Below, in pieces: positions 14,797 through 39,279 of a stretch of DNA of 64,000 nt. The notes under the pieces are model-generated. The model saw only the letters and a list, made by a program, of their open reading frames with translations. It was not told where the DNA came from and did not search any database. Where the stretch lies: contig CAZPAV010000009.1 in the NCBI GenBank assembly GCA_964584755.1, positions 358 through 64,357 on the forward strand, written 5' to 3'. The stretch comes from an uncultured Acidimicrobiaceae bacterium. Its GTDB lineage: Bacteria > Actinomycetota > Acidimicrobiia > Spongiisociales > UBA5794. Made by a program: the position numbers and the translations under genes. Numbering within the stretch: the stretch's first letter is position 1; each line of letters starts with the position of its first letter.

Positions 14797-15438
14797 TCAC
14801 CCGGCCGGGAGGGCGCGCAGGAAGGTGAGGACCGCCCGACGGGTCGCCTCGCGGTAGCGGGGATGGGCCGCCTTCCAGTCCGTCTCCTGGAGCCAGAGGA
14901 GGAACATCCCGTCGATGATGGCCCGCACCACGTCGGCGGTCTCCTCCACGTCCCCGTCCGGGAAGACCCCTCGCGTCATCCCGAGACGGACGACGTCCCC
15001 GTACGTCGAGTTGACGATGGAGCGGAACGTGGCGTTGAGCTCGCCGAAGCGGTCCATCCGGGAGGCGTAGTCGAGGAGATCGAGGTAGAGCAGGTAGAAA
15101 CGACGGTTCGCGTCGGCGTCGAAGAAGATGGCGTCGATCATCGCCTCCACCTGCGCCTCGGGGGAGTCGGCGGTCGCCACCGCCCGGCGGATCCGCTCCG
15201 CGGTGCGCGAGAGCGCCCAGTGCATGGTGGCGAGGATGAAGCGGTCCCGCGTGGCGAAGTGGTAGAGGATGACCCCCTTGCTCACCCCGGCGCGATCGGC
15301 GATCTCCTGCAGGGAGACGCGGTGCACCCCGTCCTCGGTGAACGCCTGGTAGGCGGTGCGGACGAGACGGACCTGCTTGGGCGTCAGCTCACCGGGGCGG
15401 GCGACGTCGGCGTTGGGTTCGGTCGTGGTCGTGGCCAT
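14797..15438 (-). CDS. TetR/AcrR family transcriptional regulator
   Basis: HTH SLQEIADRAGVSKGVILYHF; GGAGG SD before ATG 15438. Confidence 0.92.
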   Translation of the reverse strand: MATTTTEPNADVARPGELTPKQVRLVRTAYQAFTEDGVHRVSLQEIADRAGVSKGVILYHFATRDRFILATMHWALSRTAERIRRAVATADSPEAQVEAMIDAIFFDADANRRFYLLYLDLLDYASRMDRFGELNATFRSIVNSTYGDVVRLGMTRGVFPDGDVEETADVVRAIIDGMFLLWLQETDWKAAHPRYREATRRAVLTFLRALPAG

Positions 15439-15455
15439 GTCGGCCTCCAAGCTAG

Positions 15456-16199
15456 CTAGCCCATCACGAGTCCGCCGCTCACCCCGAGGGTCTGGCCCGT
15501 GATGAAGCTCGCCCGATCCGAGGCGAGGAACACCATGGCCGCGGCGACCTCCTCGGGCGTGCCGAAGCGGCGGATGGGGGTGGCGCGGACGATGGCCTCC
15601 ATGAGCTTGCCGTGCCCGGCGTCGATCATGCCCTGGAGGAGCGGGGTCTCGACGAGTCCGGGGGCGACGACGTTGACCCTGATGCCGTGGCGGGCCACCT
15701 CACGGGCGATGGCCTTGGAGAAGGCGATGACGCCACCCTTCGCCCCGGAGTAGACGGCCTCGCCGGAGGAGCCGTTCCGGCCCGCCTCGGACGCGGTGTT
15801 CACCACGACGCCGCGACCCCGCTCGATCATGTGGGGTAGGACGGCGTGACACGTGGAGAGCACGCCCTTGAGGTTGATGCCGAGCACCCGATCCCAGAAC
15901 TCGGGGGTCGTCTCGAGGAAGGGCTTGATGCGGTCCCATCCGGCGACGTTCACCAGGACGTCGATGCCACCCGTCTCGGCGATCACCTCGCTCACCCCGG
16001 CGGCGACCGCCTCCGGATCGGAGACGTCCATGGGGACGGCGAAGGCGCCGGCGTGGGCGGCCGCCGCCGCGGCGGCCCCCTCGGCGTTGAGGTCGGCGAT
16101 CGCCACCCGGGCCCCTTCGGCGGCGAAGGCGGCCACCGCGGCCCGGCCGATCCCGCTGGCGCCGCCGGTGACGAGCACGACCCGATCTGTGAACTCCAT
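15456..16199 (-). CDS. badH: SDR, BadH-like 2-hydroxycyclohexanecarboxyl-CoA dehydrogenase family
   Basis: TGGASGIG, VNVAGWD..KPFLET, GSSGEAVYSGAKGG, ITGQTLGVSGGL; last enzyme gene of the bcr operon. Confidence 0.75.
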   Translation of the reverse strand: MEFTDRVVLVTGGASGIGRAAVAAFAAEGARVAIADLNAEGAAAAAAAHAGAFAVPMDVSDPEAVAAGVSEVIAETGGIDVLVNVAGWDRIKPFLETTPEFWDRVLGINLKGVLSTCHAVLPHMIERGRGVVVNTASEAGRNGSSGEAVYSGAKGGVIAFSKAIAREVARHGIRVNVVAPGLVETPLLQGMIDAGHGKLMEAIVRATPIRRFGTPEEVAAAMVFLASDRASFITGQTLGVSGGLVMG

Positions 16200-16210: not shown

Positions 16211-16972
16211 CTATCGCGCGAGTGCCCCGTCGGGGTCGAGCCGGCGGAGCGTCGTGAGCTCTTCGGTGGTGGGCGGGGGTGTGGTGGGGACGTCCTCCTC
16301 GGCAGGGAGGGGGAAGCCGGTCGCCTCCCGTACCGCGGCCACGGTCACCCCGGGATGGACGCTGCGCAGGCGCATCCGGCGGGTCGCCGGGTCGAAGTCC
16401 ATCGTGGCGAGCGGGGTGACGACGAGGCTCGGTCCCTCCTTGCGGTAGGGCCGGTCCTGGGACGGATCCGCCGGGTGGCCCGGTCCGCTGACGAAGTCGA
16501 CGCGCTCGACGAACGTTCGCGGCGTGTGGGCCTCGGTGTAGATGATGGAACGGCGGGTGTTGGGGAGGAAGGGAAGGCCCACGGTGCCCGGGCCCCGCAG
16601 ACGGGGGTGCGCCCAGTCGCCCACGACGATGAGGTTGCAGTTCCCGTAGGCGTCGATCTGGAGACCCCCGGCGCAGAAGACGTCGAAGGCGTCGCCGCGG
16701 CCCTCGAGGAGCACCACGTCCGGGAGGGGGAGGGTCGTCGCCGCCGGTGCCAGTCCCGGGTCGCAGGAGGAGGTGAGGAGCGTGGGCGGCTCGGGGCTCA
16801 CCGTACCGCTCCCGCCGACGATGAACTCGAGGGAGGGGGCGTGTCGGGCCCGGGCGAGTCGACACGCCGCCATGGGGAGCGCCGGCACCGCGCCCATGAC
16901 GACGACCTCGCCGTCGCGGAACGCCCTCGCCATGACCACGGCCATGAGCTCGGCGGGGGACCAGTCGCTCAC
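16211..16972 (-). CDS. CoA-transferase-fold beta subunit (GctB/IpdB-like)
   Basis: ELMAVVMARAF, GGLQIDAYGNCN, FVERVDFVSGPG, LRSVHPGVT; GTGA overlap. Confidence 0.85.
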   Translation of the reverse strand: MSDWSPAELMAVVMARAFRDGEVVVMGAVPALPMAACRLARARHAPSLEFIVGGSGTVSPEPPTLLTSSCDPGLAPAATTLPLPDVVLLEGRGDAFDVFCAGGLQIDAYGNCNLIVVGDWAHPRLRGPGTVGLPFLPNTRRSIIYTEAHTPRTFVERVDFVSGPGHPADPSQDRPYRKEGPSLVVTPLATMDFDPATRRMRLRSVHPGVTVAAVREATGFPLPAEEDVPTTPPPTTEELTTLRRLDPDGALAR

Positions 16973-17826
16973 CTTCCACCTCCGGGGATCGCGGCACGGT
17001 ACGACGCCTCGTCGCTTCCGACGTGCGCCACGGCCCAGGCGGCGACGTCGTCGACCTGCCGGTGGGCGCCGAGGTAGCGGCGGATCGCCTTCTCGTCCCG
17101 GTCGTACCGGCCCGGGGCCGCGGTGGGATGGCACCCTCCCGGGCTGACCACCACGGCGGAGACGAGGAAGGCGGGGAGGGTCTCCGCGGGGGAGCGATCA
17201 GCGAGGCTCCCGGTGGGGACCACCTCCTCCACCTGGACGACGAGGCGCCGCGCCGCCAGGGCCATGAGCCGGTCGGTGAAGGGGAACCGGTCGAACGCCA
17301 CGTTCCCCGCCTCGTCGGCGAGCGAGCAGGCGACGAACGTCACGTCGGGACGCAGTCCCGGGATGGCCCAGCGCGTCTCGCCCGTGAAGGGGTCGGTCAC
17401 CTCGCGGTAGAGCTCCGGGTCGACCTTCGGGATGTCGGTGAGGTCGATCCCGGGAGGGCACGGCAGGAACGGGATCCCACCCGCTCCCGCGTAGAGGGCG
17501 TGGGTGAGGGACCCCTCGTCGCACTCGAGGACCCGGAGCCGGCCCTGCTCCACCGCCCGGCGGAACGCCGGGGCGAGGCCGAGATGCTCGAACCCGACGT
17601 ACGGGCTGAGGATCTCGGTGACGAGACCCGCGGCGATGGGCAGGTCCGCCTGGAGCGAGGCCGACGGGCTGGTGACGAGCCGGCCGACGCGCGCGCCCTG
17701 CCGGACGAGGGCGCGGACGAGCGCCATGGGCGCCGCCGTCATGTGCATGCCGCCGACGGCGAGCACCGCGTCGGCGGGAACGAGCTCGGCGACGGCGGTG
17801 TCCGGGTCGAGGAAGCGGGTGGTCAC
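16969..17826 (-). CDS. CoA-transferase-fold alpha subunit (GctA/IpdA-like)
   Basis: VGG.H..AAPMALVRAL, ECDEG, GIPFLP, DPFTG, ADEAGN, GGCHP. Confidence 0.85.
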   Translation of the reverse strand: MTTRFLDPDTAVAELVPADAVLAVGGMHMTAAPMALVRALVRQGARVGRLVTSPSASLQADLPIAAGLVTEILSPYVGFEHLGLAPAFRRAVEQGRLRVLECDEGSLTHALYAGAGGIPFLPCPPGIDLTDIPKVDPELYREVTDPFTGETRWAIPGLRPDVTFVACSLADEAGNVAFDRFPFTDRLMALAARRLVVQVEEVVPTGSLADRSPAETLPAFLVSAVVVSPGGCHPTAAPGRYDRDEKAIRRYLGAHRQVDDVAAWAVAHVGSDEASYRAAIPGGGR

Positions 17827-17830: not shown

Positions 17831-18796
17831 TCAGAGCGCGGCGCCGCAGTTGCCGCAGAAGCTCGTCGCCGCGGGAAGGCCCTTGGCGCCGCACGCGGCG
17901 CAGGTCTTCGCCGGGGGTCCCCAGATGAACTCGGACGAGCCGCCGTCACGCGCCCGCTCCCGGACCCCCCGGTAGTCGGGGGGACGCTTCTCGACGAAGG
18001 CCGTCATGCCCTCCCAGGGCTCGAGGGACGTGTAGTGGAGGGTCAACCAGTCCCGGGCGTGACCGATCGTCATGTGCCAGGCGAAGTCCTTCCAGAAGTT
18101 CGTCTGCTCCTTCGTGTAGCGCATGCACTCGGGGAACTTGTCGATGAGCCGCCGGCAGAGGTCGTCGACCTCGGCGTCGAGCCGGTCCCGGGGAACGACC
18201 CGGTTGACGAGTCCCCACTCGAGGGCCTGCTGGGCGGAGATGGGCTCCGAGAGGAGGAGCATCTCGCGGGCGCGACGGTCCCCCACCATGATGGGGAGGA
18301 ACTGCGTCGCGCCACCGGCGGCCACGCTCCCGACGCGGGTACCGACCTGGCGGATCGTGACGTCGTCCGCGGCGACGGCGAGATCGCAGGCCATGTTGAA
18401 CTCGTTGCCGCCGCCGGCGACGATGCCGTTGAGGCGGGCGATCGTCGGCTTCCCCATGCCGCGCAGCGCGTCGTGGCACGCGGCGAAGAGCGTCATGTAC
18501 TTCCAGTACTCGTGGGGTCGCTGGGTGTACACCGAGGCATACTCCTTGACGTCCCCGCCGGTGCAGAAGGCCTTGTCTCCGGCGCCGGTGAGGACGAGGA
18601 CGGCGACGCCGTCGTCGAACGCGGCGTCGCGGAACGCCTCGAGCATCTCGCCCAGGGTGTTCGTGCTGTAGGCGTTGTAGTTGTGGGGGCGGTTGATCGT
18701 GACCCGGGCGACCCAGTCCTGCTTCTCGTAGATGATGTCCTGGAATCCGAAGCTGTCGGGGTCGCGTCCGGTCAGGACGCTCGACTCGTCGGTCAT
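17831..18796 (-). CDS. oah: Crotonase-family ring-opening hydrolase, Oah/BamA-like, with C-terminal zinc ribbon
   Basis: AFCTGGDVKEYASVYTQRPHEYWKYMTLF and KFPECM resemble 6-oxocyclohex-1-ene-1-carbonyl-CoA hydrolase; tail CAAC...CGNC. Confidence 0.75.
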   Translation of the reverse strand: MTDESSVLTGRDPDSFGFQDIIYEKQDWVARVTINRPHNYNAYSTNTLGEMLEAFRDAAFDDGVAVLVLTGAGDKAFCTGGDVKEYASVYTQRPHEYWKYMTLFAACHDALRGMGKPTIARLNGIVAGGGNEFNMACDLAVAADDVTIRQVGTRVGSVAAGGATQFLPIMVGDRRAREMLLLSEPISAQQALEWGLVNRVVPRDRLDAEVDDLCRRLIDKFPECMRYTKEQTNFWKDFAWHMTIGHARDWLTLHYTSLEPWEGMTAFVEKRPPDYRGVRERARDGGSSEFIWGPPAKTCAACGAKGLPAATSFCGNCGAAL

Positions 18797-18880: not shown

Positions 18881-19696
18881 TCACACCGCGGCCGGTTGCT
18901 TGCGGTCCACCTTCTGGAGCCGCAGGTGGGCGAGGAGCGCCGCGCCGTACGCTCCCGCGTAGTTTCCCATGTCGTCGGGGGGGACGAGGAATCCGAACCC
19001 GAGCTTCTCCTCGAGCACCTCGGCGACGAGGGGCACCCGGGTGAGGCCGCCGGTGAGGGCGCACGGCGGCTCGGGCCGAACCCGCTTGACGAGCTGGGCC
19101 GCCCGCCCCGCGAGCGCGGCCACCGCCCCGGCGCAGACGTCCTCGGCGCTCTCGCCGGCGGCGAGATGGTTGATGATCTCCGACTCGGCGAAGACGGCGC
19201 AGACGCTCGAGACGGGCACCGGCTTCTGCGCGGCTCCCGAGAGCTCGGCGATGGCTCCCACCTCGTGACCCATGTACCGGACCGTCTTCTGGAGGAAGGC
19301 GCCGGCGCCGGCGGCGCACTTGTCGTTGAGACGGAAGGCCCGCACCCGGCCGGTCTCGTCGAGCCGGATGGCCTTGACCGTCTGGCCGCCGGCGTCGAGC
19401 ACCGTCCGGACCTCGGGCAGGAGTCGGTGCACCGCGTAGGCGTGACAGGTGAGCTCGGTGACCGCGAGGTCTCGTTCGGGGACGGCGTGCCTCCCGAAGC
19501 CGGTCGTCGCGACGTAGGCGATGGCGGAGCGGTCGAGACCGGCGATCTCGAGGGTCTCGCTCAGGGCCTGCTCGGCGGCGCGGGGGAAGTTGTACCCGGT
19601 GAGTCGGCTCGAGCGGGCGACGATCGTCCCGTCCTCGTCGGCGATGACGGTCTTCGTGTAGCTCGATCCGAGGTCGATCCCTGCCGTGAGTGTCAT
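18881..19696 (-). CDS. bcrD: Class I benzoyl-CoA reductase ATPase subunit (BcrD/BadG-like)
   Basis: AGIDLGSSYTK, ATTGFGR, LNDKCAAGAG, SSVCAVFAESE, AGAYGAAL; ATGA overlap. Confidence 0.8.
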   Translation of the reverse strand: MTLTAGIDLGSSYTKTVIADEDGTIVARSSRLTGYNFPRAAEQALSETLEIAGLDRSAIAYVATTGFGRHAVPERDLAVTELTCHAYAVHRLLPEVRTVLDAGGQTVKAIRLDETGRVRAFRLNDKCAAGAGAFLQKTVRYMGHEVGAIAELSGAAQKPVPVSSVCAVFAESEIINHLAAGESAEDVCAGAVAALAGRAAQLVKRVRPEPPCALTGGLTRVPLVAEVLEEKLGFGFLVPPDDMGNYAGAYGAALLAHLRLQKVDRKQPAAV

Positions 19697-20511
19697 GACG
19701 TCCTTCCCCTCTCTGCCGAGGCACCGGTGAGGACCTGGTCGAGGGCGAACAGGGCCGCTCCGATGGCGCCGCAGTGCTGCGATTCCTCGCTCGTGTTCAC
19801 CGGGGAGTCGGTGAGCTCGGCGATGAGCTCGACCATGGCCGCGTTCCTCGCCACTCCACCGGTGAAGGTGATCTCCGGCTCGATGCCGACCCGCCGCAGC
19901 AGCGAGACGCTGCGGGAGGCGATGGCCCGATGCACGCCGAGGATGACGTCCTCCTGCTTGCGGCCTCGGGCGAGCCAGCCGAGGATCTCGGACTCGGCGA
20001 AGACGGTGCAGGTGGTGCTCATACGCACCGGGTGGGTGGCGGTGAGGGCGAGGGGTCCCAGCTCGTCGAGGGGCACCTCGAGGGCGTCGGAGGCGGCGCC
20101 GAGGAAGCGTCCGGTACCGGCGGCGCACTTGTCGTTCATGCAGAAGTCGACGACGCCGCCGTTCTCGTCGACCTTGATGGCCTTCGTGTCCTGTCCTCCG
20201 ACGTCGAGGACGGTTCGGGTCCCCGGGAAGAGGTACACCGCACCGCGGGCGTGGCAGGAGATCTCGGTGACCTGGGCGTCGCCGAACTCGATCCGGTACC
20301 GGCCGTATCCGGTGCCGACGATGAACCCCACCTCCTCGGTGGTGCGGCCCGCGTCGGCGAGCGCCATCTGGAACGCCCGCTCGCCGGACTCGTCGAGCCG
20401 CACCCCGGTGTCGGTGAGGGCTCGGCCGAGCACCCGCCGACTCCCGTCCATGATCACGGCCTTCGTCTGGGTGGAGCCGACGTCGACGCCGGCGACCAAC
20501 ATCTCGCTCAT
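19693..20511 (-). CDS. bcrA: Class I benzoyl-CoA reductase ATPase subunit (BcrA/BadF-like, short form)
   Basis: GVDVGSTQTK, GTGYGR, EISCHARG, DVGGQDTK, MNDKCAAGTG, TTCTVFAESE, FTGGVARN. Confidence 0.82.
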   Translation of the reverse strand: MSEMLVAGVDVGSTQTKAVIMDGSRRVLGRALTDTGVRLDESGERAFQMALADAGRTTEEVGFIVGTGYGRYRIEFGDAQVTEISCHARGAVYLFPGTRTVLDVGGQDTKAIKVDENGGVVDFCMNDKCAAGTGRFLGAASDALEVPLDELGPLALTATHPVRMSTTCTVFAESEILGWLARGRKQEDVILGVHRAIASRSVSLLRRVGIEPEITFTGGVARNAAMVELIAELTDSPVNTSEESQHCGAIGAALFALDQVLTGASAERGRTS

Positions 20512-20518: not shown

Positions 20519-21823
20519 TCACCTCCCCGCCGTCACGCGGCGGCTCTCGAGGGACTCGAAGAACGCGTCGATCCGGTTCTTGAGCTGTGCCTCGGCCCAG
20601 AGTCGCGAGTCGACGAGATCGGACTGGATGAAGAGTCCGGGGGTGTCGTCGGCGCCCATGAGCCACTCTCGGGTGTCGGGCAGGCCCGTCGAGGTCGTCC
20701 GGCAGGACTTCACCCCGTGGTAGCAGATCCCGTCGATCGACCAGTCCCGGACCGCCTCGCGCTGCCACTCCTGGGAGAAGAAGATCCCGCTGAAAGACGG
20801 CTGGGCCGTGAGCACGATCTGCTCGGCGAGGCTCTCGATGGGACGCTCGAGGTCGTAGTGGATCCCACGATCGATGCCACCACCGGCGTACGACATGTAC
20901 TCGCTGGCGACGAAGACGCCGTTCCAGTCCTCGAAGAGGCCGACGAAGTCGCGGAAGTGCGAGTAGCAGGCGGTGCCGATGAGGAGGAGGCGGAACCGCT
21001 CGTCGGGAACGGCCCCGACGCCGTGGGCCACCCGCTCATCGAGCTCGGCGAGGGCGGTCTCCATGAATCGGGTCCCGCGGGGGTCGCCGCGGTAGATGTT
21101 GGCGATGCCCTGGTAGTTGATCCCCTCGGTGAGGGCGTTGAAGGGCGCAGGCCGGTGCTGGTTCGTCTTCATGATGGCCTGGTAGAGCTCCGACATGCGG
21201 TTGACCTCGCCCATGACGGCGCGCAGCTTGTCGATGTCGAAGCGTTGGCCTGTCTGCTCCTCGCAGAAGGTGATGAGCTCCCGCATCTGCTGCTCGACGT
21301 ACGCCTTGTCCTCGGCGAAGGTCCGGGTACCGGATCCGTACGCGAACCCCGAGCCGCGCCAGCCCGGGATGTCGAGGACGAACGTGGGCGTCCCGTACAT
21401 GCGCTCCCAGATCTCCGCCCACTTGATGTACGTGTTGCACATGTTCGTGGCGACCGTGAAGGCGGGTTGCGGGTACGTGCCCATGGGGTGGGCCCGGTCG
21501 GTGACGTGGAGGCCGACGTCGACCTTCACGTAGCCGCAGATGTCGGGGGAGTAGCCGTAGTCCTCGGCGGCCTCGAGGTACTGCATGGCCTTCCCCTTCA
21601 CCGCGGTCTGGAGGGCGGCGATCTCGGGGAAGCTCATGGGGATGTCGAAGGTGCTGAGGATCTCGGCCATGGATCCCATGACGAAGACGTTGGCCACGGG
21701 CCGGCCGCTCGTGGCGGCCTCGCTGAGCTCCTTCCACCACTCCTCGATGAGCTGGCGGCTCGCCCTCCGGGTGGTCCCGGCGAGCGCCAGAGGGGGACGA
21801 ATGGCGACGCGGCGTTCTTTCAT
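20519..21823 (-). CDS. bcrB: Class I benzoyl-CoA reductase beta subunit (BcrB/BadE-like)
   Basis: YSPDICGYVKVD, NMCNTYIKW, FDIDKLR, VKSC, SDLVDSR...KNRIDAFF. Confidence 0.82.
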   Translation of the reverse strand: MKERRVAIRPPLALAGTTRRASRQLIEEWWKELSEAATSGRPVANVFVMGSMAEILSTFDIPMSFPEIAALQTAVKGKAMQYLEAAEDYGYSPDICGYVKVDVGLHVTDRAHPMGTYPQPAFTVATNMCNTYIKWAEIWERMYGTPTFVLDIPGWRGSGFAYGSGTRTFAEDKAYVEQQMRELITFCEEQTGQRFDIDKLRAVMGEVNRMSELYQAIMKTNQHRPAPFNALTEGINYQGIANIYRGDPRGTRFMETALAELDERVAHGVGAVPDERFRLLLIGTACYSHFRDFVGLFEDWNGVFVASEYMSYAGGGIDRGIHYDLERPIESLAEQIVLTAQPSFSGIFFSQEWQREAVRDWSIDGICYHGVKSCRTTSTGLPDTREWLMGADDTPGLFIQSDLVDSRLWAEAQLKNRIDAFFESLESRRVTAGR

Positions 21824-21834: not shown

Positions 21835-22998
21835 TCAGGCGAACTCGAACATCAGGGACTCGGCGAAGGTCTCGACCTCCATCTGGAACTGCTCGAAGAC
21901 GGTGGTCTTCTCCTCGAACTCGAGGACGAGGTGCGGGATCCCGGCCTCGTCGAGGGCCCGGCTGTACCCGACCTGCTCCTCGAGTCCCGGTTCGCACATC
22001 TTGGCGGCGGAGACGATGGCGGCCTCGGCCCCCGACTCCTCGATACGGCGGAGGAGCATCTCCTCCTTCGGCTTGCGGGGATCGCGCTGCACCGGGCTGT
22101 AGCTGGAGGTCTCCACGTAGGCACGGGCGAGGTCGGCGACCGGGTCGCCGTCGACGGGGACGTCCTCGGTGAGCCAGCGCAGGCCGATGAGGAGGTCGTC
22201 GTCGACGACGTAGCACACGTTCTGCAGGACGGCGAGCATGTCGATGGGGGGCTGCTCGCAGAAGCCGCCCTCGATGACGACCCGGATCTTGTCCTGGGGT
22301 CTGCGGTCCCGCTCCCGGATGAGGGGGAGGGCCCGGCGCAGGATCTCGTTGTGCTCCTCGCGCGGCATGACCCCGGCGGCCCGGGTGAGCGCGTACGCCT
22401 CCACGGCGTCGATGAGCCACGGCTGCTCCCGCTTGATCTGGTACAGCTCGCGGAGGAGGCGGCGGTTCTCGTTGAACACCGCGATGCTGTGGCGGAGGTC
22501 GTCGTCGGTGACCTTCCGACCGGCGAGGTCCTCGATGATCCCGAGGATGCGGCGGTACTCGTCGGTGAGGTACGGCAGGGCCTGGCGGGAGGTCGGGTTG
22601 TGGGGGTAGTAGAGGATCTGGCACTCCATCTCGGGGAAGTTGCGTGCCCAGACGCCGAGCGAGTGGCGGGCGGCGTCGCAGATGGGGTGGGTGACGAACA
22701 TGTCGAGGAAGTCGAGGCTCCCCGAGAGGGCGAGCTCGAGCCCGGAGCGGATGATGGAGCAGACGAACGCGGCGAACCGGGCGTCGGCCTGCCGGATCTG
22801 GACGGTGCTGTCGGCCCCCATGACCTTCACCGGGAGCACGCCGGCGGCGTGGGCGAGCTCCTCGGGGAAGTACACCTGGAAGTGCCCGAGGACCTTCCCG
22901 TCGGGATGCTCCTCGAGCCAGCGCCGGGCGGCGGGGTAGCGAGGGTCCTCCACGAGCACCCGGCAGTCGTCGATGATCCTCTCGAGTTCACTGGTCAT
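21835..22998 (-). CDS. bcrC: Class I benzoyl-CoA reductase gamma subunit (BcrC/BadD-like)
   Basis: AARRW, FVCSI, PICDA, EQPW, GGFCEQPP, CYVVDDD, KMCEPGL. Confidence 0.85.
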   Translation of the reverse strand: MTSELERIIDDCRVLVEDPRYPAARRWLEEHPDGKVLGHFQVYFPEELAHAAGVLPVKVMGADSTVQIRQADARFAAFVCSIIRSGLELALSGSLDFLDMFVTHPICDAARHSLGVWARNFPEMECQILYYPHNPTSRQALPYLTDEYRRILGIIEDLAGRKVTDDDLRHSIAVFNENRRLLRELYQIKREQPWLIDAVEAYALTRAAGVMPREEHNEILRRALPLIRERDRRPQDKIRVVIEGGFCEQPPIDMLAVLQNVCYVVDDDLLIGLRWLTEDVPVDGDPVADLARAYVETSSYSPVQRDPRKPKEEMLLRRIEESGAEAAIVSAAKMCEPGLEEQVGYSRALDEAGIPHLVLEFEEKTTVFEQFQMEVETFAESLMFEFA

Positions 22999-23152: not shown

Positions 23153-24448
23153 ATGGAGACGACCTACTTCGCGCGTGAGACGGAGACGGCACCCGTCGAG
23201 CGCCTGCGCGAGATCCAGCTCACGAAGCTCAGGACGCTGCTGGAGACGATCCTGGGACGCAACCGGTTCTACACCGGGAAGCTCGCCGGCCTGGAGCCGG
23301 GGGACGTGCGTCGCGTGGAGGACCTGCGGGACCTCCCCTTCACCACGAAGGCCGAGCTCCTCGCGGCCCAGGAGGAGGGCGGAGGCTTCTCGACGAACGC
23401 CACCTTCTCCGAGAGGGCGTACACCCGCTTCCATCAGACCTCGGGCACCACCGGACGGCCCCTCCGCGTCTACGACACCGCGGAGAGCTGGGACTGGTGG
23501 GGGCGCTGTTGGGGCTACGTGCTCGCGGGCGCGGGACTCACCGCCGCGGATCGCCTCTTCGTGCCCTTCTCCTTCGGTCCGTTCATCGGGTTCTGGGCCG
23601 CGCTCGGCGGGGCCGAGAAGATCGGGGCCCTCATGATCCCCGGCGGAGGGCGCAGCTCCGTCCAGCGACTCGCCCTCATGGCCGAGCTCGGCGCGACCGC
23701 CATGTGCTGCACCCCCACCTACGCGCTCCGGCTCGCCGAGGTGGCTCGTGAGGAGGGGTTCGACCTGGACCGCATCCCCATGCGCCTCACCGTCCATGCC
23801 GGAGAGCCGGGGGCGAACGTCCCGGCGACGAAGGCCCGCATCGAGGCCGAGTGGGGGGCGAAGTGCTACGACCACGCCGGAGCCTCCGAGGTGGGCGCCC
23901 ACAGCTTCGAGTGCGAGGCCCAGCCGGGGGGGACCCACGCCATCGACAGCGAGTTCATCGTCGAGGTCGTCGATCCGACGAGCGGGGAGGCCGTGTCGCC
24001 GGGGGAGGAGGGGGAGCTCGTCGTGACCAACCTCGGTCGGGCGGGGTTCCCGGTGATCCGCTACCGCACCGGGGACGTGGTGCGGGTCGATGCGACGCCG
24101 TGCCCCTGCGGGCGGACCTTCACCCGGTTCGCCGGGGGGGTCATCGGCCGGGCCGACGACATGGTCGTGGTGCGAGGCGTCAACGTGTATCCGGGGGCCG
24201 TCGAGAACCTCGTCCGCGAGCACGAGGGGATCGACGAGTTCCGGGTGCGGGTGGTGCGGCACCGGGAGATGGCCGAGCTCGTCGTCGAGATCGAGTGCGC
24301 CCAGGGCGTCGACGCCACGGCGTCGTGCGCCGCGGTGACCGCCGCCTTCCGGGACCGTCTCGGGCTCACCCCGCGGGTGACGGCGGTGCCGCGGGACACG
24401 CTGCCGCGCTTCGAGCTCAAGGCGAAGCGATTCATCGTCGAGGGGTGA
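23153..24448 (+). CDS. paaK: Phenylacetate-CoA ligase (PaaK) family aryl-CoA ligase
   Basis: LPFTTK, QTSGTTG, YDHAGASEVG, RYRTGD, GRADDM...RGVNVYP. Confidence 0.85.
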   Translation: METTYFARETETAPVERLREIQLTKLRTLLETILGRNRFYTGKLAGLEPGDVRRVEDLRDLPFTTKAELLAAQEEGGGFSTNATFSERAYTRFHQTSGTTGRPLRVYDTAESWDWWGRCWGYVLAGAGLTAADRLFVPFSFGPFIGFWAALGGAEKIGALMIPGGGRSSVQRLALMAELGATAMCCTPTYALRLAEVAREEGFDLDRIPMRLTVHAGEPGANVPATKARIEAEWGAKCYDHAGASEVGAHSFECEAQPGGTHAIDSEFIVEVVDPTSGEAVSPGEEGELVVTNLGRAGFPVIRYRTGDVVRVDATPCPCGRTFTRFAGGVIGRADDMVVVRGVNVYPGAVENLVREHEGIDEFRVRVVRHREMAELVVEIECAQGVDATASCAAVTAAFRDRLGLTPRVTAVPRDTLPRFELKAKRFIVEG

Positions 24449-24988: not shown

Positions 24989-25552
24989 GTGGAACGCATC
25001 GTCGTGGGGATCTCGGGCGCGAGCGGCGCTGTCTACGGGATTCGGCTCCTGGAGGTCCTGCGGGACGTCCCGGAGGTGGAGACCCACCTCGTGGTCAGCG
25101 GAGGTGCCCGTCGCACCATCGAGCTCGAGACGGACCTGACCCCGGAGGCGGTGGAGGGCCTCGCCGACCACGTCTACCCGCTCCGCGACCTGGCGGCGCC
25201 CATCTCCTCGGGATCCTTCCGGACGGCGGGCATGGTGGTGGCCCCCTGCTCGATGAAGACCCTCTCCGGCATCGCCAACTCCTACACGGACACCCTCTTG
25301 ACCCGGGCCGCCGACGTGACGCTGAAGGAGCGGCGGCGGCTGGTCCTCCTGCCCCGGGAGACGCCGCTCCATCTCGGGCACGCCCGTCTCATCGTCCACG
25401 CCATCGAGCTGGGTGCCATCGTCATGCCGCCGACACCCGCCTTCTACCACCACCCCCGGAGCATCGAGGACATCGTCGATCACACGGTGAGTCGGGTCCT
25501 CGACCTCTTCGGCATCGACAACGACCTCGTGGAGCGCTGGCAGGGCGCTTGA
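24989..25552 (+). CDS. ubiX: Flavin prenyltransferase UbiX
   Basis: VGISGASG, APISSGS, APCSMKTL, RAADVTLKERR, RETP, MPPTPAFY. Confidence 0.96.
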   Translation: MERIVVGISGASGAVYGIRLLEVLRDVPEVETHLVVSGGARRTIELETDLTPEAVEGLADHVYPLRDLAAPISSGSFRTAGMVVAPCSMKTLSGIANSYTDTLLTRAADVTLKERRRLVLLPRETPLHLGHARLIVHAIELGAIVMPPTPAFYHHPRSIEDIVDHTVSRVLDLFGIDNDLVERWQGA

Positions 25553-25566
25553 CGTCCCGCGATCCG

Positions 25567-25613
25567 GTTCGCTACGGTGTTCGCTATCACGAACGAGGTT
25601 CTCTATAGCGAAA
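25567..25613. promoter_or_regulatory. IclR-type operator repeats upstream of the IclR-ubiD-HAD-pps operon
   Basis: GTTCGCTATCACGAAC (25579-94), GTTCTCTATAGCGAAA (25598-613), plus half-site GTTCGCTAC (25567-75). Confidence 0.65.
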
Positions 25614-25704
25614 CCATTGGAGGACCGTCGACGGCCCCGGTCGTCGATCCACCGGGCCCGGGGAGGGACCGGTCAGGACCCCGAGGGGAGGAGGGGAGGA
25701 GCGC

Positions 25705-26481
25705 ATGTCGGCACGGGCGTCGGCCGTGGAACGGGCCATCCAGATCCTTCGCTCCTTCGAGGAGCAGGACGAGTTCTCCCTGACCGAGCTCGTCGAGCGG
25801 CTCGACCTCAACAAGAGCACCGCCCACGGGATCCTCCGCACCCTCACCGACCACCGCTTCCTCAGCCGCGACGAGGGGACCCTGCGGTACCGGCTCGGTC
25901 CGGCGCTCATCCGGCTCGGCCACCTCGCCCACGAGCAGATCGACGTGCGCCGCGTGGCGCGACCCTTCATGGAGTCCCTCATGGAGGAGACCCGCAAGTC
26001 GGTCCTCCTCGGCACCTTCCACGACGGCCGGATCACGATCATCGACAAGGTGGACCCGGTGGGCACGCTCCACGTCTCGGCCGCCATCGGCCAGCAGATC
26101 CCACTGTCGGCCGGCTCCTTCGGACGCGTGTTCCTCGCCTGGCTCCCCGAGGAGGAGGTCGACGCCCTCCTCGAGGAGCACGGCCTCGAGGCCTTCACCC
26201 CGTCCTCGATCGTCGACCCCGAGGCGTACAAGCGCGAGCTCGAGCGGGTGCGACGCCTCGGATACGCCGTCGACGACCAGGAGGAGTACCTCCTCGGCGT
26301 GCGGGCGGTCTCGGTGCCGCTCATGGACCATCGCGAGGTGGTCGCCGCGCTGACGATCGTGGGTTTCACCTCCCGCCGCGACGATCAGCCCAGCGGCGTG
26401 ACGATCAAGGCCATCACCCGGGCGGGGTGTGAGATCTCGAAGCGGCTCGGTGCCGAGACCGACGCCCGCGAAGGACCCTGA
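25705..26481 (+). CDS. IclR family transcriptional regulator
   Basis: SAVERAIQIL, LNKSTAHGILRTL, YRLGP, GYAVDDQE, AVSVP. Confidence 0.95.
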   Translation: MSARASAVERAIQILRSFEEQDEFSLTELVERLDLNKSTAHGILRTLTDHRFLSRDEGTLRYRLGPALIRLGHLAHEQIDVRRVARPFMESLMEETRKSVLLGTFHDGRITIIDKVDPVGTLHVSAAIGQQIPLSAGSFGRVFLAWLPEEEVDALLEEHGLEAFTPSSIVDPEAYKRELERVRRLGYAVDDQEEYLLGVRAVSVPLMDHREVVAALTIVGFTSRRDDQPSGVTIKAITRAGCEISKRLGAETDAREGP

Positions 26482-26509
26482 ACGACGACCCGAGAGGAGA
26501 GGGGAGCGC

Positions 26510-27946
26510 ATGCCGTTCGACGACCTGCGGTCGTTCATCGACCGACTCGACGAGGAGGGCCAGCTGGAGCGGATCCGCCGCGAGGTGGACTGGAACCTCG
26601 AGCTGAGCCACGTCGCCAAGCTCAACGAGGAGCGCCAGGGTGGTGGCTCGGCCCTCCTGTTCGAGAACGTCAAGGAGTACCCGGGGCACCGGGTCTTCAT
26701 CAGCGCCCTCACCGCGCGGGAGCGACTCGCCCTCGCGCTCGACATGCCTCAGGACACGAGCCTCATGCACCTCTCCCAGGAGTGGGTGGAGCGCATCCAC
26801 GACAACAGGGTCCCCCCCAAGGAGGTCGCCACCGGCCCGTGCAAGGAGAACGTCCTCCGCGGCGAGGACGCGGACATCACCCGCCTGCCCAGCCCGTGGT
26901 TCTACCCGGGCGACGGGGGGCGGTACCTGGGCACCGCCGGGTACCTCATCACCCGCAACCTCGAGACGGGGCGCCTCAACCTCGGCACGTACCGCGCCAT
27001 GGTCGGCTCGGCGCACGAGCTCTGCATCTACATGATCAAGGCCAAGGACGGCGAGATCGACTTCCGGGCGTACCAGGAGGCCGGCATCCCCATGCCGGTG
27101 GCGTACGTCTCCGGGTGCGACCCGACGCTCTTCCTCTGCTCGAGCACCCTCTTCGGACTCGACGAGAGCGAGTACGACGTCGCCGGGGCGCTGCGCGGCG
27201 CCCCCGTGGAGGTCGTCCGCGCGGAGACCTCCGACCTCCTCGTCCCGGCCGCCGCGGAGTGGGTCGTGGAGGGGGAGATCGTCCCCGGCGAGACCCGCCC
27301 GGAGGGCCCCTTCGGCGAGTACACCGGCCACTACTCGGGGAAGGGCGACGAGGAGCAGTACTTCATCCGGGTGAAGGCGATCACCCACCGCGACGACCCG
27401 ATCCTCTGGTCGACGACGGTGGGCCGGCCCACGACCGACACCCATATGATCATGAGCGTCAACCGCACCGCGTCCCTGTGGAACGACCTCCGGCGCATGC
27501 AGATCCCCGGCATCAGGGCCGTCTACGGTCCGCCGGCCTCGGCGGGGAGGATGCTCGTCATCATCTCCATGAAGCCCATGTACCACGGTCACTCCACGCA
27601 GGTCGGCCTGGCGGCGTTCGCCTCCACGACGGGGAACTACGGCCTGAAGACGGTCATCCTCGTCGACGAGGACATCGACCCGGAGAACATGGATCAGGTC
27701 CTCTACGCGCTGAGCTTCAAGTACCAGCCGGAGTTCGGCACCCAGATCCTCCGCCGGGGGCGCTCCACGCCGCTCGACCCCTCCCTGCCCCGATCGGACC
27801 GGTTCATGACCTCGCGCATCATCATCGACTGCACCACGCCGTACGAGTGGGGCGAGGAGGACCGGCCGCGCAAGATCGAGCTCGACGAGGCGATGGCGGC
27901 GTACGTCCGCGAGCACTGGGACGAGTACTTCGCCGGGGGGAGGTGA
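26510..27946 (+). CDS. ubiD: UbiD-family (de)carboxylase, phenylphosphate carboxylase beta (PpcB)-like
   Basis: EVDWNLELSHVAKL, DGGRYLGT, EGPFGEYTG, GRPTTDTHM, RGRSTPLDP, TSRIIID..PYEW. Confidence 0.88.
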   Translation: MPFDDLRSFIDRLDEEGQLERIRREVDWNLELSHVAKLNEERQGGGSALLFENVKEYPGHRVFISALTARERLALALDMPQDTSLMHLSQEWVERIHDNRVPPKEVATGPCKENVLRGEDADITRLPSPWFYPGDGGRYLGTAGYLITRNLETGRLNLGTYRAMVGSAHELCIYMIKAKDGEIDFRAYQEAGIPMPVAYVSGCDPTLFLCSSTLFGLDESEYDVAGALRGAPVEVVRAETSDLLVPAAAEWVVEGEIVPGETRPEGPFGEYTGHYSGKGDEEQYFIRVKAITHRDDPILWSTTVGRPTTDTHMIMSVNRTASLWNDLRRMQIPGIRAVYGPPASAGRMLVIISMKPMYHGHSTQVGLAAFASTTGNYGLKTVILVDEDIDPENMDQVLYALSFKYQPEFGTQILRRGRSTPLDPSLPRSDRFMTSRIIIDCTTPYEWGEEDRPRKIELDEAMAAYVREHWDEYFAGGR

Positions 27947-28803
27947 GCGCCACGAGGACCGGCGGCATGGAGCGGGTCGAGGGCATCGTCTTCGACATCG
28001 ACGGAACGGTGGCCCGCGGCCGCTCCGTCCTCCCCGGCGTGCTCGAGACGCTCGCCGAGCTGCGTCGGCGCGGCATCCGCTACGCCTTCCTCACCAACGA
28101 CAACACCCACCGGGTGGGGTTCTGGGTGGAGCGCCTCGCCGCCATGGGGATCGCCGCGACCCCCGAGGAGGTCGTGACCGCCGCCCTCGTCGCCGCCGAG
28201 GCGACCGCCCAGCTCCATCCCGGCAGGAGGGTCCTCCCGGTCGGGGACGTGGGGCTCCGGGAGGCGCTCGCCGCCAAGGGTCTCGAGCTCGTGGGGTACG
28301 ACGACGCCGAGCGGGCCGAGGTCGTGGTGATGGGGAAGGACCCGGAGTTCGACCAGCGGCGGCTCGCCGTCGTCTGCCGGGCCATCTGGAACGGCGCCGA
28401 GTTCCTCGCCACCAACCGGGATCCGCGCGTCCCCACCGCGGACGGCTTCGCGCCGGGGACGGGGCCCATGGTCGAGGCGGTGGCGTACGCCACGGGTCGG
28501 GAGCCCCTCGTCACCGGCAAGCCCTCGGCGTGGGCGGGGAGGATGGCCATGGAGCTCATCGGCGTGGCACCCGAACGTGGCGCCGTGGTCGGCGACCAGC
28601 TCGCCACCGACATCGCCATGGGGCGCCACGCCGGTCTGTGGACGGTGCTCGTCCTCTCCGGCGCGACTCGGGCCGGGGAGGTGGACGCCGTCCCGGAGGA
28701 CCTCCGTCCCCACGTCGTGCTCGACGACGTGACGGGCCTCGTCCCGTTGCTCGACGGGAGCACGGCGGTGGCGGAGGGATCGCGCAGGAGAGGGAGGGAG
28801 TGA
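27943..28803 (+). CDS. HAD-IIA (NagD-like) phosphatase
   Basis: FDIDGT, FLTND, ATNRD, GKPS, VGDQLATDI; overlaps both neighbours. Confidence 0.9.
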   Translation: MSATRTGGMERVEGIVFDIDGTVARGRSVLPGVLETLAELRRRGIRYAFLTNDNTHRVGFWVERLAAMGIAATPEEVVTAALVAAEATAQLHPGRRVLPVGDVGLREALAAKGLELVGYDDAERAEVVVMGKDPEFDQRRLAVVCRAIWNGAEFLATNRDPRVPTADGFAPGTGPMVEAVAYATGREPLVTGKPSAWAGRMAMELIGVAPERGAVVGDQLATDIAMGRHAGLWTVLVLSGATRAGEVDAVPEDLRPHVVLDDVTGLVPLLDGSTAVAEGSRRRGRE

Positions 28804-29891
28804 TGGAGCGGTACATCATCGACTTCGCACGCTGCGACGACTCGTGCCTGAGCCGGGTCGGCGGCAAGAGCGTCGGTCTCGGCACCATGATCCGCGCCGG
28901 CGTACCGGTCCCGCCGGGCTTCGCGGTGACGACGAACGCGTACCTCGCCGCGATCCGCGACGCGGGGATCGAGGCGGCCATCGCCGACCTCCTCGCCGGT
29001 GTGCACCCGGAGGACGTCGACGCCCTCGAGGAGATCAGCGTCGGCATCCGGGAACGGATCGAAGCGTCGGCCATCCCCTCCGAGGTCGAGGCCGCGGTGC
29101 GCGACGCCTACGAGGAGCTCTCCGGCCGGTGTGGGTATCCCGACGGGGACCTCCCCGTAGCGGTCCGCTCCTCGGCGACCGCCGAGGATCTCCCCGGCGC
29201 GAGCTTCGCCGGCCAGCAGGACACCTACCTCTGGATCGTCGGCGCCGACGCGGTGCTGACCCACGTGCGGCGCTGCTGGTCGAGCCTGTACACGGCACGC
29301 GCCATCGCCTACCGGATCGAGCAGGGGTTCGCCCACACCCAGGTGGCGATGAGCGTCTGTGTGCAGAAGATGGTGAACGCCCGGGCCGCGGGAGTGATGT
29401 TCACCCTGAACCCCTCCAACGGCGACCGGTCCAAGGTGGCCATCGACGCCGCCTGGGGACTCGGGGAGGCGGTGGCGTCCGGTGAGGTGACGCCCGACAA
29501 CTACCTCGTCGACAAGATCGTGCTCGAGATCGTGCGCAAGACGGTCTCCCCCAAGGCCGTGGAGTACCGGCCCGACGTCGCGGAGCGGCGGATGGTCCGG
29601 CGCGAGGTGGAACCGGCGCGTCGTGAGGCGCCCTGTCTCACCGACGAGGAGGTGCTCGCCCTGGCTCGCTACGGGCGGCTCATCGAGGGCCACCACGGTC
29701 GTCCCCAGGATCTCGAGTGGGCCGTGGACGCCGACCTCGAGCCGCCCGAGAACATCGTGCTGCTCCAGGCCCGACCCGAGACGGTGTGGAGCACCCGGCA
29801 GCGGGAGAACGTGACCTCCGCGGAGGGCTCGACGCTCGATCACATCGTCGCCAACCTCCTCACCGGGGTGCGACTGCGGGGAGGCGGGTGA
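28803..29891 (+). CDS. ppsB: Phenylphosphate synthase subunit B-like (ATP-binding, PEP-synthase N-terminal domain)
   Basis: VGGKS, VPPGF, AVRSSATAEDLPGASFAGQQDTYL, GEVTPD, LQARPETVWS, C-terminal IVANLLTG; no His or PEP domain. Confidence 0.85.
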   Translation: MERYIIDFARCDDSCLSRVGGKSVGLGTMIRAGVPVPPGFAVTTNAYLAAIRDAGIEAAIADLLAGVHPEDVDALEEISVGIRERIEASAIPSEVEAAVRDAYEELSGRCGYPDGDLPVAVRSSATAEDLPGASFAGQQDTYLWIVGADAVLTHVRRCWSSLYTARAIAYRIEQGFAHTQVAMSVCVQKMVNARAAGVMFTLNPSNGDRSKVAIDAAWGLGEAVASGEVTPDNYLVDKIVLEIVRKTVSPKAVEYRPDVAERRMVRREVEPARREAPCLTDEEVLALARYGRLIEGHHGRPQDLEWAVDADLEPPENIVLLQARPETVWSTRQRENVTSAEGSTLDHIVANLLTGVRLRGGG

Positions 29892-30040
29892 CCGACCACG
29901 GCCGGGTCCCCCGGAGGACCCGAGGAGCGAAGGACGCGGCGAGAGGGAGGACGCGATGAGCTGACCGGGGGGAACGAGGAGAGGAGCGGGCCCGGAGCGC
30001 CCGCGCGGCAGACAGGAACAGCGATCGTGAGGAGAGGGCG

Positions 30041-33058: not shown

Positions 33059-34033
33059 TCAGCGGGCCCCGGCGAGGTCGGTGAGGAGGCGGCGGACGTA
33101 GACGGGGATCATGCGCTTGCGGTACCGCGAGGTGAGGTCGGTGTTCCCCATGGGTCGCACCGCCTTGCCGGCGAGCGCTCCCGCCTCCTCCACGAGCTCC
33201 GCGGACCAGGGGTGGGCGGTGAGGAGCTCCTCGGCGGCGGTGGCCCGCACCGGGGCGGAGGCGACCGCTCCGAGGACGATCCGGGCCTCCCGACAGCGGT
33301 CCCTGGCGAAGCGCAGGGCGGCGGCGACGCCGAGGATGGGGAAGTCGATCGAGCCTCGGCGGCGGAGCTTGCGATAGCCGGCGCGACGGTCGCCGAGGGA
33401 TGGGACGACGACCTCGACGAGGATCTCCTCGGGCTCCTTGGCGAGGTGGGCCATGCCGTCGTCGCGATAGAGCTCCGCCACCGGGAGGGTCCGTGTTCCG
33501 TCGGGTCCGGCGAGCCGGACGGTCGCCTCGAGGGCGACGAGGACCGGGGCGAGATCGGAGGAGAGGACCGCCCAGCACTGCCGCTTCGCCGGCGCCACCC
33601 AGCACGTCTCGCCCCCGGCCTTCAGGCAGGGCTCCGCCGCCTGCCGCCACAGGTCGGTGACGTTGAGCCAGTGGCAGCGGGTGTCGACGCAGAGGTTCCC
33701 ACCGACCGTTCCCCGGTTGCGGAGCTGCGGGGAGGCGACGAGGGCGGCGGCCGCGGCGAGGGCCTCGGGGACGTCGGGGGAGGAGGCGACGGTCGCCAGG
33801 GTGGTGAGCGTCCCGAGACGGACCGTGCCGTCCTCCGCGGTGGTGATGCCGGCGAGCCCGGGGACCGCGGCGAGGGAGACGACGGTGCCGGCGGGGAACT
33901 GGCGGCGCTTGAGGTTGGGGTAGAGGTCGGTGCCGCCGGAGACGACGACGGCGTCGTCGTGCGCGGCGAGGAGGGCGAACACCTCGGCGAGCCCCGTCGG
34001 CCGGTGGTAGGCGAAGGCGGGGAGGCGCATCAT
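33059..34033 (-). CDS. hcrB: 4-hydroxybenzoyl-CoA reductase beta-like subunit (FAD plus [4Fe-4S] insert)
   Basis: GGTDLYPNLKR, GTVGGNLCVDTRC-x15-CLK-x5-C-x8-C four-Cys insert, SIDFP. Confidence 0.82.
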   Translation of the reverse strand: MMRLPAFAYHRPTGLAEVFALLAAHDDAVVVSGGTDLYPNLKRRQFPAGTVVSLAAVPGLAGITTAEDGTVRLGTLTTLATVASSPDVPEALAAAAALVASPQLRNRGTVGGNLCVDTRCHWLNVTDLWRQAAEPCLKAGGETCWVAPAKRQCWAVLSSDLAPVLVALEATVRLAGPDGTRTLPVAELYRDDGMAHLAKEPEEILVEVVVPSLGDRRAGYRKLRRRGSIDFPILGVAAALRFARDRCREARIVLGAVASAPVRATAAEELLTAHPWSAELVEEAGALAGKAVRPMGNTDLTSRYRKRMIPVYVRRLLTDLAGAR

Positions 34034-36423: not shown

Positions 36424-36884
36424 GCGCCGCTCCCCGCCGCCGCCGCCACGGCGCGGACGATGCTGAGGTATCCGGTGCAGCGACACATGTTCCCGGCGAG
36501 CGCCTCCCGGATCTCCGTCTCGGACGGATGGGGGACGCGGTCGAGGAGAGCCTTGGCGGTGAGGATCATCGCCGGGGTGCAGTAGCCGCACTGGGAGGCG
36601 CCGAAGGCGGCGAAGCTCTCCTGGAGCGGGTGGGGGTGGGCGATCGTGCCGAGCCCCTCGATGGTGGTGACCTCGTGGTCGGCGGCGTCGACGGCGAGGA
36701 GGAGGCAGGAGAGCTGGGGGACGCCATCGACGAGGACGGTGCAGGCGCCGCACTCCCCGAGCTCGCAGCCGTGCTTCGTGCCGGTGAGTTCGAGGTCCTC
36801 ACGGAGCACCTCGAGGAGCGTCCGGTGGGGGGGAGCGACGAGCTCGTAGCGATCTCCGTTGACCACCAACGCCAGCGGCTCCAT
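36420..36884 (-). CDS. hcrC: 4-hydroxybenzoyl-CoA reductase gamma-like subunit (2x[2Fe-2S])
   Basis: GTKHGCELGECGACTV, SCL, QCGYCTP, GNMCRCTGY; order C-A-B. Confidence 0.82.
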   Translation of the reverse strand: MEPLALVVNGDRYELVAPPHRTLLEVLREDLELTGTKHGCELGECGACTVLVDGVPQLSCLLLAVDAADHEVTTIEGLGTIAHPHPLQESFAAFGASQCGYCTPAMILTAKALLDRVPHPSETEIREALAGNMCRCTGYLSIVRAVAAAAGSGA

Positions 36885-36909
36885 CGGGCTCCCCTCCTTC
36901 CTGCGGGCG

Positions 36910-39278: not shown

Positions 39279-39279
39279 G

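Follow-up and report, generated by a model that had tools for sequence, protein, structure and literature searches.

In a 64,000-nucleotide stretch of the genome of an uncultured Acidimicrobiaceae bacterium (contig CAZPAV010000009.1 of assembly GCA_964584755.1, referred to here as the window), positions 16211-17826 hold exactly two minus-strand genes, encoding the alpha and beta subunits of a protein with the fold of the class I coenzyme A (CoA)-transferases. Judged from the sequences, the pair appears to represent a new clade of GctAB-fold proteins that lacks the catalytic glutamate of the beta subunit, combines an IpdAB-like glutamate in alpha with an invariant cysteine of its own in beta, and would have been recruited to anaerobic aromatic degradation. 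The two subunits probably form a heterodimer that does not transfer CoA and that acts, downstream of an aryl-CoA reductase encoded in the same operon, on a CoA ester of the dearomatised ring. As to the reaction, our tentative best guess is that the pair is an IpdAB-like hydratase/retro-Claisen hydrolase that opens 6-oxocyclohex-1-ene-1-carbonyl-CoA, a job otherwise done by Oah (BamA).

Both subunits match the Pfam family CoA_trans (PF01144), while no NCBIfam model names either of them in a scan of the window. The fold and the Pfam family are defined by GctAB of Acidaminococcus fermentans (PDB 1POI). The 3-methylglutaconyl-CoA decarboxylase AibA/AibB of Myxococcus xanthus (PDB 5MZW) has the same fold and also lacks the beta glutamate. 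IpdAB (Rv3551/Rv3552; PDB 6CO6, 6COJ and 6CON), the COCHEA-CoA hydrolase acting on steroid rings C/D, is likewise a GctAB-fold heterodimer; the mycobacterial enzyme reportedly lacks the beta glutamate as well and cleaves the ring in a retro-Claisen reaction by means of a glutamate in the alpha subunit.

In phmmer comparisons with the PDB, the beta subunit matches GctB (1POI_B, E 3e-22), AibB (5MZW_D, E 3e-22) and IpdB (6CO6_B, E 5e-20). Its motif FIVGGSG is placed opposite IIV-ESG of GctB and YLA-CVG of AibB, and a profile of 17 members of the beta family gives the same register (GctB, E 2e-40). Gly53-Gly54 of beta replace the GctB nucleophile Glu54, and no acidic residue lies within two positions. 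An earlier note on this DNA, made from the sequence alone, had correctly given the GctB motif as IIVESG and had suggested that the catalytic glutamate is missing; the alignment check for an acidic residue at the Glu54 position bears this out, with glycine found there. The motif reads GG[ST/G][GC] in each of the 73 beta sequences obtained from the 85 fetched loci and GGS[GA] in all of the 120 best database homologues, and Asp or Glu occupies the GctB Glu54 column in none of these approximately 190 orthologues. Since Glu54beta is missing, a glutamyl-CoA intermediate is not expected for the pair. In IpdB, Glu54beta of glutaconate CoA-transferase corresponds to Gly57beta, and IpdAB showed no CoA-transferase activity (Crowe et al. 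2017, PMC5380842), a residue assignment that agrees with our alignment to IpdB of Nocardia farcinica. In AibAB, the former glutamate position is taken by Cys56, and Glu72beta has been proposed as a proton relay or source (PMC7756340). The beta subunit has glycine at the former and an invariant cysteine, Cys70, at the latter; Cys70 is usually followed by aspartate (Cys70-Asp71) and has no counterpart in IpdB or GctB.

The alpha subunit matches AibA (E 2.6e-31), IpdA (E 5e-28) and GctA (E 1.7e-15) in the same type of comparison. Its motif ECDEG, which the earlier note had likened to EMDEG of IpdA, aligns with that IpdA segment, and the E105A variant deposited as 6COJ reads EMDAG in this column; because the exchanged residue appears there as alanine, Glu104 of alpha can be equated with IpdA Glu105. 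We take Glu105 to be the catalytic base of IpdA, based on the 6COJ sequence and the titles of the PDB entries. The column holds glycine in AibA and glutamine in GctA. Glu104 is invariant in 20 close orthologues, a D-E-[GA] motif is present in 114 of 120 database homologues of alpha, and the glutamate is kept in every fetched locus with crotonase, short-chain dehydrogenase/reductase (SDR) or reductase neighbours. Among all fetched loci it is missing only in one Chloroflexota subclade with EADAP or EVDAP, which also lacks the usual neighbours. In this subclade (loci L037, L058, L062, L063 and L065), alanine replaces Glu104, the beta motif is GGGGG and Cys70 is kept, while crotonase, SDR and reductase genes are all absent nearby; its function is probably different. 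With E values of 1e-20 to 1e-40, the residue matches in both subunits are homologous columns and not chance motifs.

The genes lie in a tightly packed minus-strand operon (Table 1) in a window with a G+C content of approximately 73%, and the junctions within the operon are tight or overlapping. The alpha gene begins with GTG 4 nt past the stop codon of a crotonase gene, the GTG start of beta overlaps the TGA of alpha as a 4-nt GTGA and is preceded by GGAGG, and the start of a BadH-like SDR gene follows 11 nt past the beta stop codon. The reductase subunits encoded upstream have the NCBIfam benzoyl-CoA reductase (BCR) A, B, C and D models as top matches, and the C-like subunit matches MbdN, the gamma subunit of 3-methylbenzoyl-CoA reductase (9G87_B), with 470 bits (E 7e-140). 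Based on the MbdN match, the reductase is a genuine class I (Thauera/Mbd-type) ATP-dependent aryl-CoA reductase. The pair thus sits between the crotonase, which resembles MenB, BadI and Oah, and the BadH-like SDR, a placement close to that given in the earlier note (between Oah-like and BadH-like genes), and it lies downstream of the reductase.

The association is widespread. Protein searches returned 628 alpha homologues and, at E <= 0.001, 2145 beta homologues, which are named only 'glutaconate CoA-transferase subunit A/B', 'CoA synthetase' or 'hypothetical'. Neighbourhoods were counted in 80 non-redundant loci from species-representative genomes, which span Acidimicrobiia, Thermoleophilia/Gaiellales, Acidobacteriota, Armatimonadota, Dormibacterota, Chloroflexota, Bacillota (Desulfosporosinus sp. 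I2, Acididesulfobacillus, Paradesulfitobacterium and Peptococcaceae CEB3) and Thermoplasmata/Methanomassiliicoccales archaea. The beta gene is no more than 3 kb away from alpha in 74 loci, and an SDR is encoded within 4 kb of alpha in 55. A crotonase with a zinc ribbon is encoded within 7 kb in 42 and directly upstream of alpha in 35, and class I reductase subunits are found within 11 kb in 35 loci, or in half (27 of 54) of those where the upstream sequence suffices. The order crotonase-alpha-beta-SDR is repeated in at least eight phyla, and three long contigs with precomputed annotations carry the same cassette, one of them beside Hcr-like genes. Immediately ahead of the pair, Desulfosporosinus sp. 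I2 and Peptococcaceae CEB3 have genes for HdrA-, MvhD-, NuoF- and ferredoxin-like proteins, a set typical of class II (Bam) reductases, and SDR and thiolase genes come after the pair. A metagenome-assembled genome of the Methanomassiliicoccales has the pair together with genes for a crotonase, a thiolase, an SDR, a zinc-dependent alcohol dehydrogenase, an acyl-CoA dehydrogenase and a BamB-like aldehyde:ferredoxin oxidoreductase. This linkage to both class I and class II reductases suggests that the pair is tied to the dearomatised ring and not to one type of reductase. In two Peptococcaceae loci (L040, 16890-20336, and L052), the Bam-type modules are accompanied by another HGD-D pair, which is divergent and has only one BcrAD-type ATPase; its subunits are 23-28% identical to the reductase subunits of the window, and it adjoins a zinc-ribbon crotonase gene.

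After the reductase, the canonical pathway proceeds by hydration, oxidation, and then a second hydration with ring cleavage. For these three steps the operon offers three enzymes: the crotonase, the SDR and the alpha/beta pair. The best NCBIfam matches of the crotonase are Oah (205 bits), BadI (203 bits) and MenB (192 bits), all far below the cut-offs; it matches MenB in the PDB with 176 bits and is approximately 40% identical both to MenB and to a BadI annotated by the Prokaryotic Genome Annotation Pipeline (PGAP). When the crotonase is aligned with BadI, MenB and classical hydratases, the first hydratase glutamate is present (GGGNE, against GGGNV in BadI and GGGHV in MenB), the position of the second is glycine, as in MenB and BadI, and alanine replaces the aspartate of MenB and BadI (GSVAAG against GSVDPG and GSFDGG). 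This mix of residues fits a hydratase on a MenB scaffold, not a C-C hydrolase, although the enzyme may also be bifunctional in the manner of Oah. A C-terminal zinc ribbon (CxxC...CxxC) is conserved, and with 66-86% identity across phyla the crotonase orthologues are more conserved than alpha and beta. A search of plasmid records for a bona fide Oah/BamA reference returned only BadI-annotated and generic crotonases.

We favour the role of ring opener for the pair because of its IpdAB-type residues, the identity of the substrate core and the residues found in the crotonase. As to the core, the reactive part of the IpdAB substrate is identical to that of 6-oxocyclohex-1-ene-1-carbonyl-CoA, which by established knowledge of the pathway is the Oah substrate. 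In addition, echA20-ipdA-ipdB of the steroid cluster has a parallel order, crotonase-alpha-beta, again with SDR and TetR genes close by. Hence, we hypothesize that the reductase yields cyclohexa-1,5-diene-1-carbonyl-CoA, which the zinc-ribbon crotonase, as a Dch-type hydratase, would convert into 6-hydroxycyclohex-1-ene-1-carbonyl-CoA and the BadH-like SDR, as a Had-type dehydrogenase, would oxidise to the 6-oxo compound. Next, the alpha/beta pair would add water across the C1=C2 double bond, with Glu104 of alpha as the base as in IpdAB, and would then hydrolyse the C1-C6 bond in a retro-Claisen reaction to form 3-hydroxypimelyl-CoA, with Cys70 of beta as a possible proton donor to the resulting enolate. 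In this scheme, substrate and reaction are predictions, and so is the way in which the work is shared with the crotonase and SDR. The pair would share with Oah/BamA and BadI (2-ketocyclohexanecarboxyl-CoA hydrolase) the proposed reaction and the place in reductase clusters. However, those enzymes belong to the crotonase superfamily and have an unrelated fold, so equivalence would amount to a non-orthologous replacement, and a member of the Oah/BamA superfamily, the crotonase, is also encoded immediately upstream of the pair.

Several observations weigh against the ring-opening role or set the pair apart from IpdAB. In a neighbour-joining analysis, for which reference fragments were taken from HMMER alignments and complemented with IpdAB of N. 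farcinica, the pair forms a deep clade of its own; distances within the family reach 0.66, and those to Ipd (0.75-0.80), Aib (0.70-0.77) and Gct (0.75-0.77) are roughly equal. Orthology with IpdAB failed in that the pair does not cluster with IpdA/IpdB to the exclusion of the other families, and identity is 34% to N. farcinica IpdA over the full length and 33% to IpdB. The beta family profile gives IpdB the lowest score (94 bits, against 142 for GctB and 108 for AibB), alpha scores AibA (112 bits) above IpdA (101 bits), and Cys70, absent from IpdB, aligns with the proposed proton source of a decarboxylase. The top NCBIfam match of the neighbouring crotonase is Oah, so the ring-opening role may already be taken, and approximately a dozen Acidimicrobiia loci have no crotonase in the operon. 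In the Firmicutes loci, a zinc-dependent alcohol dehydrogenase, a classical and a zinc-ribbon crotonase, an SDR and a thiolase could cover all the canonical steps without the pair. The genomic setting differs as well: IpdAB belongs to the KstR2 steroid (HIP-catabolic) regulon with ipdC, ipdF, fadD3 and fadE30-33, whereas the pair occurs in a class I/II benzoyl-CoA reductase context with aryl-CoA reductase, Hcr-like, UbiD/UbiX and Pps-like genes; ipdC, fadD3 and fadE30 are absent around it, and it is found in strict anaerobes and archaea.

Structure prediction with AlphaFold2, for which database homologues served as input for beta, gave a confident model of alpha with a predicted local distance difference test score (pLDDT) of 85.8 and an acceptable one of beta with a pLDDT of 80.6 and two disordered loops. 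Foldseek matched them to GctA/GctB with a probability of 1.0 (TMq 0.82-0.84). For alpha, AibA ranks first by E-value (TMq 0.77) and IpdA has the highest TMq (0.85-0.86), because alpha and IpdA share a C-terminal helical extension that AibA lacks; for beta, which also matches IpdB, the TM-score is highest with GctB (0.84), whereas AibB ranks first by E-value. The closest relative therefore differs by measure, being AibA/AibB by E-value, GctB by the beta profile and IpdA by the TM-score of alpha. From the sequences, the IpdAB catalytic signature is present and IpdAB orthology is absent. The proposal in the earlier note of an IpdAB-like C-C hydrolase in place of a CoA-transferase consequently stands in part: the Glu104/Gly54 signature is there, CoA transfer is very unlikely and IpdAB-like water addition or C-C cleavage is the best guess, but by descent the pair does not belong to the IpdAB family, given the separate clade, the low identity and the ranking of GctB above IpdB, and its Cys70 has no counterpart in IpdB. 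Its further suggestion that the pair is a second ring-opening enzyme needs revision, as the crotonase has a hydratase-type glutamate and no MenB/BadI aspartate, and the pair may be the main ring opener or only a hydratase.

The latter alternative, in which the pair performs only the first IpdAB half-reaction, the SDR oxidises the product and the MenB/BadI/Oah-like crotonase opens the ring, is the main rival but unlikely. The substrate would be a cyclic dienoyl- or enoyl-CoA, making the pair the equivalent of Dch or BadK, or 6-oxocyclohex-1-ene-1-carbonyl-CoA. A crotonase resembling Oah and BadI next to an SDR resembling BadH matches hydrolase and dehydrogenase by name and leaves the hydratase step over, alpha-beta-SDR is the most constant triad, consistent with a hydratase followed by a dehydrogenase, and the alpha glutamate is the type of base that a hydratase needs. 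However, it is the crotonase that has the hydratase-type glutamate without the MenB/BadI aspartate, no simple hydratase is known in the CoA-transferase fold, and crotonases for hydration are abundant, including the classical one at 48259-49062.

A decarboxylase similar to AibAB is distinctly unlikely. Such an enzyme would convert glutaconyl-CoA into crotonyl-CoA, with Cys70 of beta protonating the dienolate, and would thereby offer the lower benzoyl-CoA pathway a soluble route that follows thiolysis of 3-oxopimelyl-CoA and dehydrogenation of glutaryl-CoA. The top ranks of AibA and AibB by E-value in sequence and Foldseek comparisons, the closeness of beta to the glutaconyl-CoA binder GctB, the position of Cys70 in the column of the proposed proton donor Glu72 and the thiolase that follows the SDR in several loci are all consistent with it. 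On the other hand, an acyl-CoA dehydrogenase, which is needed to form glutaconyl-CoA, is encoded near only 8 of 85 loci, and reductase, Hcr-like and ligase genes are much commoner neighbours. The hallmarks of AibB are also missing, with glycine for Cys56 and cysteine for Glu72, the conserved alpha glutamate would have no role in an enzyme of the AibAB type, and AibAB is encoded in an operon for isovaleryl-CoA biosynthesis, in contrast to the aromatic-degradation operon of the pair.

It is quite improbable that the pair is an isomerase or proton-shuffling enzyme, which would, for instance, shift a double bond in a cyclic dienoyl-CoA with Glu104 and Cys70 as acid/base, or, alternatively, a thioesterase. 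In favour of these readings, the acyl-binding site is predicted to have two conserved ionisable residues close by, there is tight linkage between the pair and the reductase, and a Glu-to-Asp mutant of CtfAB has been deposited as a hydrolase (9CQ2), which shows that the fold can hydrolyse thioesters. Yet there is no precedent for an isomerase in the CoA-transferase fold, a thioesterase would waste activation energy in the middle of a CoA-dependent pathway, and the 9CQ2 precedent requires an acidic residue at the glutamate position, which the pair lacks. That the pair is a true class I CoA-transferase, for instance one that uses another nucleophile to activate benzoate, glutarate or pimelate, would be suggested by the fold, the Pfam family and the database names but is highly improbable given the lack of an acidic residue at or next to the Glu54 position in the orthologues, the failure of IpdAB with the same substitution to show CoA-transferase activity (PMC5380842) and the dedicated CoA ligases and class III CoA-transferase encoded nearby.

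The enzymes acting on the ring after its reduction have been regarded as settled, consisting of either Dch/Had/Oah or BadK/BadH/BadI, and oah/bamA is the standard functional marker gene for anaerobic aromatic degradation. A conserved, uncharacterised pair in reductase operons of at least eight phyla points to a non-orthologous replacement of a known step or to an extra step. It is conceivable, if rather doubtful, that the pair, the zinc-ribbon crotonase and the BadH-like SDR constitute a substitute for the Dch/Had/Oah (BamA) steps that is widespread, has gone unrecognised and serves both reductase classes. If this is true, Actinomycetota, Dormibacterota, Chloroflexota, Acidobacteriota, Desulfosporosinus-type Firmicutes and Thermoplasmata-type archaea would use the alternative pathway, surveys based on bamA/oah would miss a large share of the anaerobic aromatic degraders, and the opening of 6-oxocyclohexene-carboxyl-CoA rings would have been taken on by the CoA-transferase fold on two occasions, once for steroids and once for benzoyl-CoA. 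Among Glu-less GctAB-fold enzymes, the pair would also add a third characterised function, or a second hydrolase. The substrates for a direct functional test are already made by laboratories that study the benzoyl-CoA pathway. In literature searches, no paper was found in which a pair similar to IpdAB or Gct is connected with the benzoyl-CoA pathway, nor anything relevant on benzoyl-CoA reductase in Acidimicrobiia.

Beyond this clade, Glu-less GctAB-fold proteins appear to be a large and mostly unstudied group. When 1.84 billion representative proteins were searched with the beta profile, there were 3548 relatives at E <= 0.001, of which 259 clusters (50% identity) remained at E <= 1e-30. The transferase motif xE[SA]G is present in only approximately a dozen of the 150 clusters that match best, and most have no acidic residue there at all. 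Approximately a dozen of the best 150 clusters are natural alpha-beta fusions (540-606 amino acids), two of which, P0247 and P0248, fall in the clade with GGSG and SSCD motifs. An apparent fusion of the crotonase with alpha (P0038) was rejected, as its linker corresponds to the zinc-ribbon region read through out of frame; it is a frameshift artefact and provides no evidence for a complex.

Table 1. Features of the window in and around the operon encoding the alpha/beta pair
Feature	Position	Strand	Remarks
TetR-family regulator, operon end	14797-15450	-	Pfam TetR_N and TetR_C_6; beside the SDR in many loci
BadH-like SDR (247 amino acids)	15456-16199	-	NCBIfam TIGR03206 (BadH) top match, 269 bits, below the cut-off of 431
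Beta subunit	16211-16972	-	253 amino acids; Pfam PF01144
Alpha subunit	16969-17826	-	285 amino acids; GctA/IpdA/AibA fold; Pfam PF01144
Crotonase, MenB/BadI/Oah-like, with zinc ribbon	17831-18796	-	Directly upstream of alpha; Pfam ECH_1
BcrAD-type ATPases (two)	18881-19696, 19693-20511	-	Pfam BcrAD_BadFG in both
Reductase B-like subunit	20519-21823	-	Pfam HGD-D; NCBIfam BCR
Reductase C-like subunit	21835-22998	-	Pfam HGD-D; NCBIfam BCR
PaaK-like aryl-acid CoA ligase	23153-24448	+	Divergent transcription; Pfam and NCBIfam
UbiX, IclR, UbiD, PPDK_N and phosphoenolpyruvate-utiliser pair (phenylphosphate synthase/carboxylase-like), three-subunit Hcr-like molybdenum enzyme	24989-31861 and 33059-36920		
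PrpF/4-oxalomesaconate-tautomerase-like isomerase	37036-38163		
SCP-x-type thiolase and DUF35 partner (ChsH2-like zinc-ribbon/OB); indolepyruvate/2-oxoacid:ferredoxin oxidoreductase	38136-39831 and 41259-43923		
Second module: class III CoA-transferase, classical crotonase, FabG-like SDR, LeuCD-like (aconitase-family) hydratase	47033-51579		
Classical enoyl-CoA hydratase (crotonase) of the second module	48259-49062		

Judged by its gene content, including the ligase and the reductase, the window appears to encode the whole anaerobic conversion of phenol or 4-hydroxybenzoate into benzoyl-CoA in an actinobacterium-like organism of high G+C content, and the indolepyruvate/2-oxoacid:ferredoxin oxidoreductase could regenerate reduced ferredoxin for the reductase. 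No protein of the window reaches the curated NCBIfam cut-offs for Oah or BadI. The sequence is found in hydrothermal-vent and microbial-mat metagenomes; of the samples containing it, one has a metatranscriptome, and none of the words of the sequence occur there. Several elements of the window recur elsewhere. The divergent arrangement of the PaaK-like ligase is repeated in loci L001, L004, L008 and L010, a PrpF-like gene is found near the cassette in unrelated phyla (L002, 11158-12291; L004, 1-320), and the SCP-x-type thiolase with its DUF35 partner is also present in L002, L009 and L013. A LeuCD-like pair directly follows alpha-beta-SDR in a clade of Actinomycetes (e.g. L041, 12521-14340), in which the beta motifs are GGTC and SCCD and no reductase is encoded within 10 kb.

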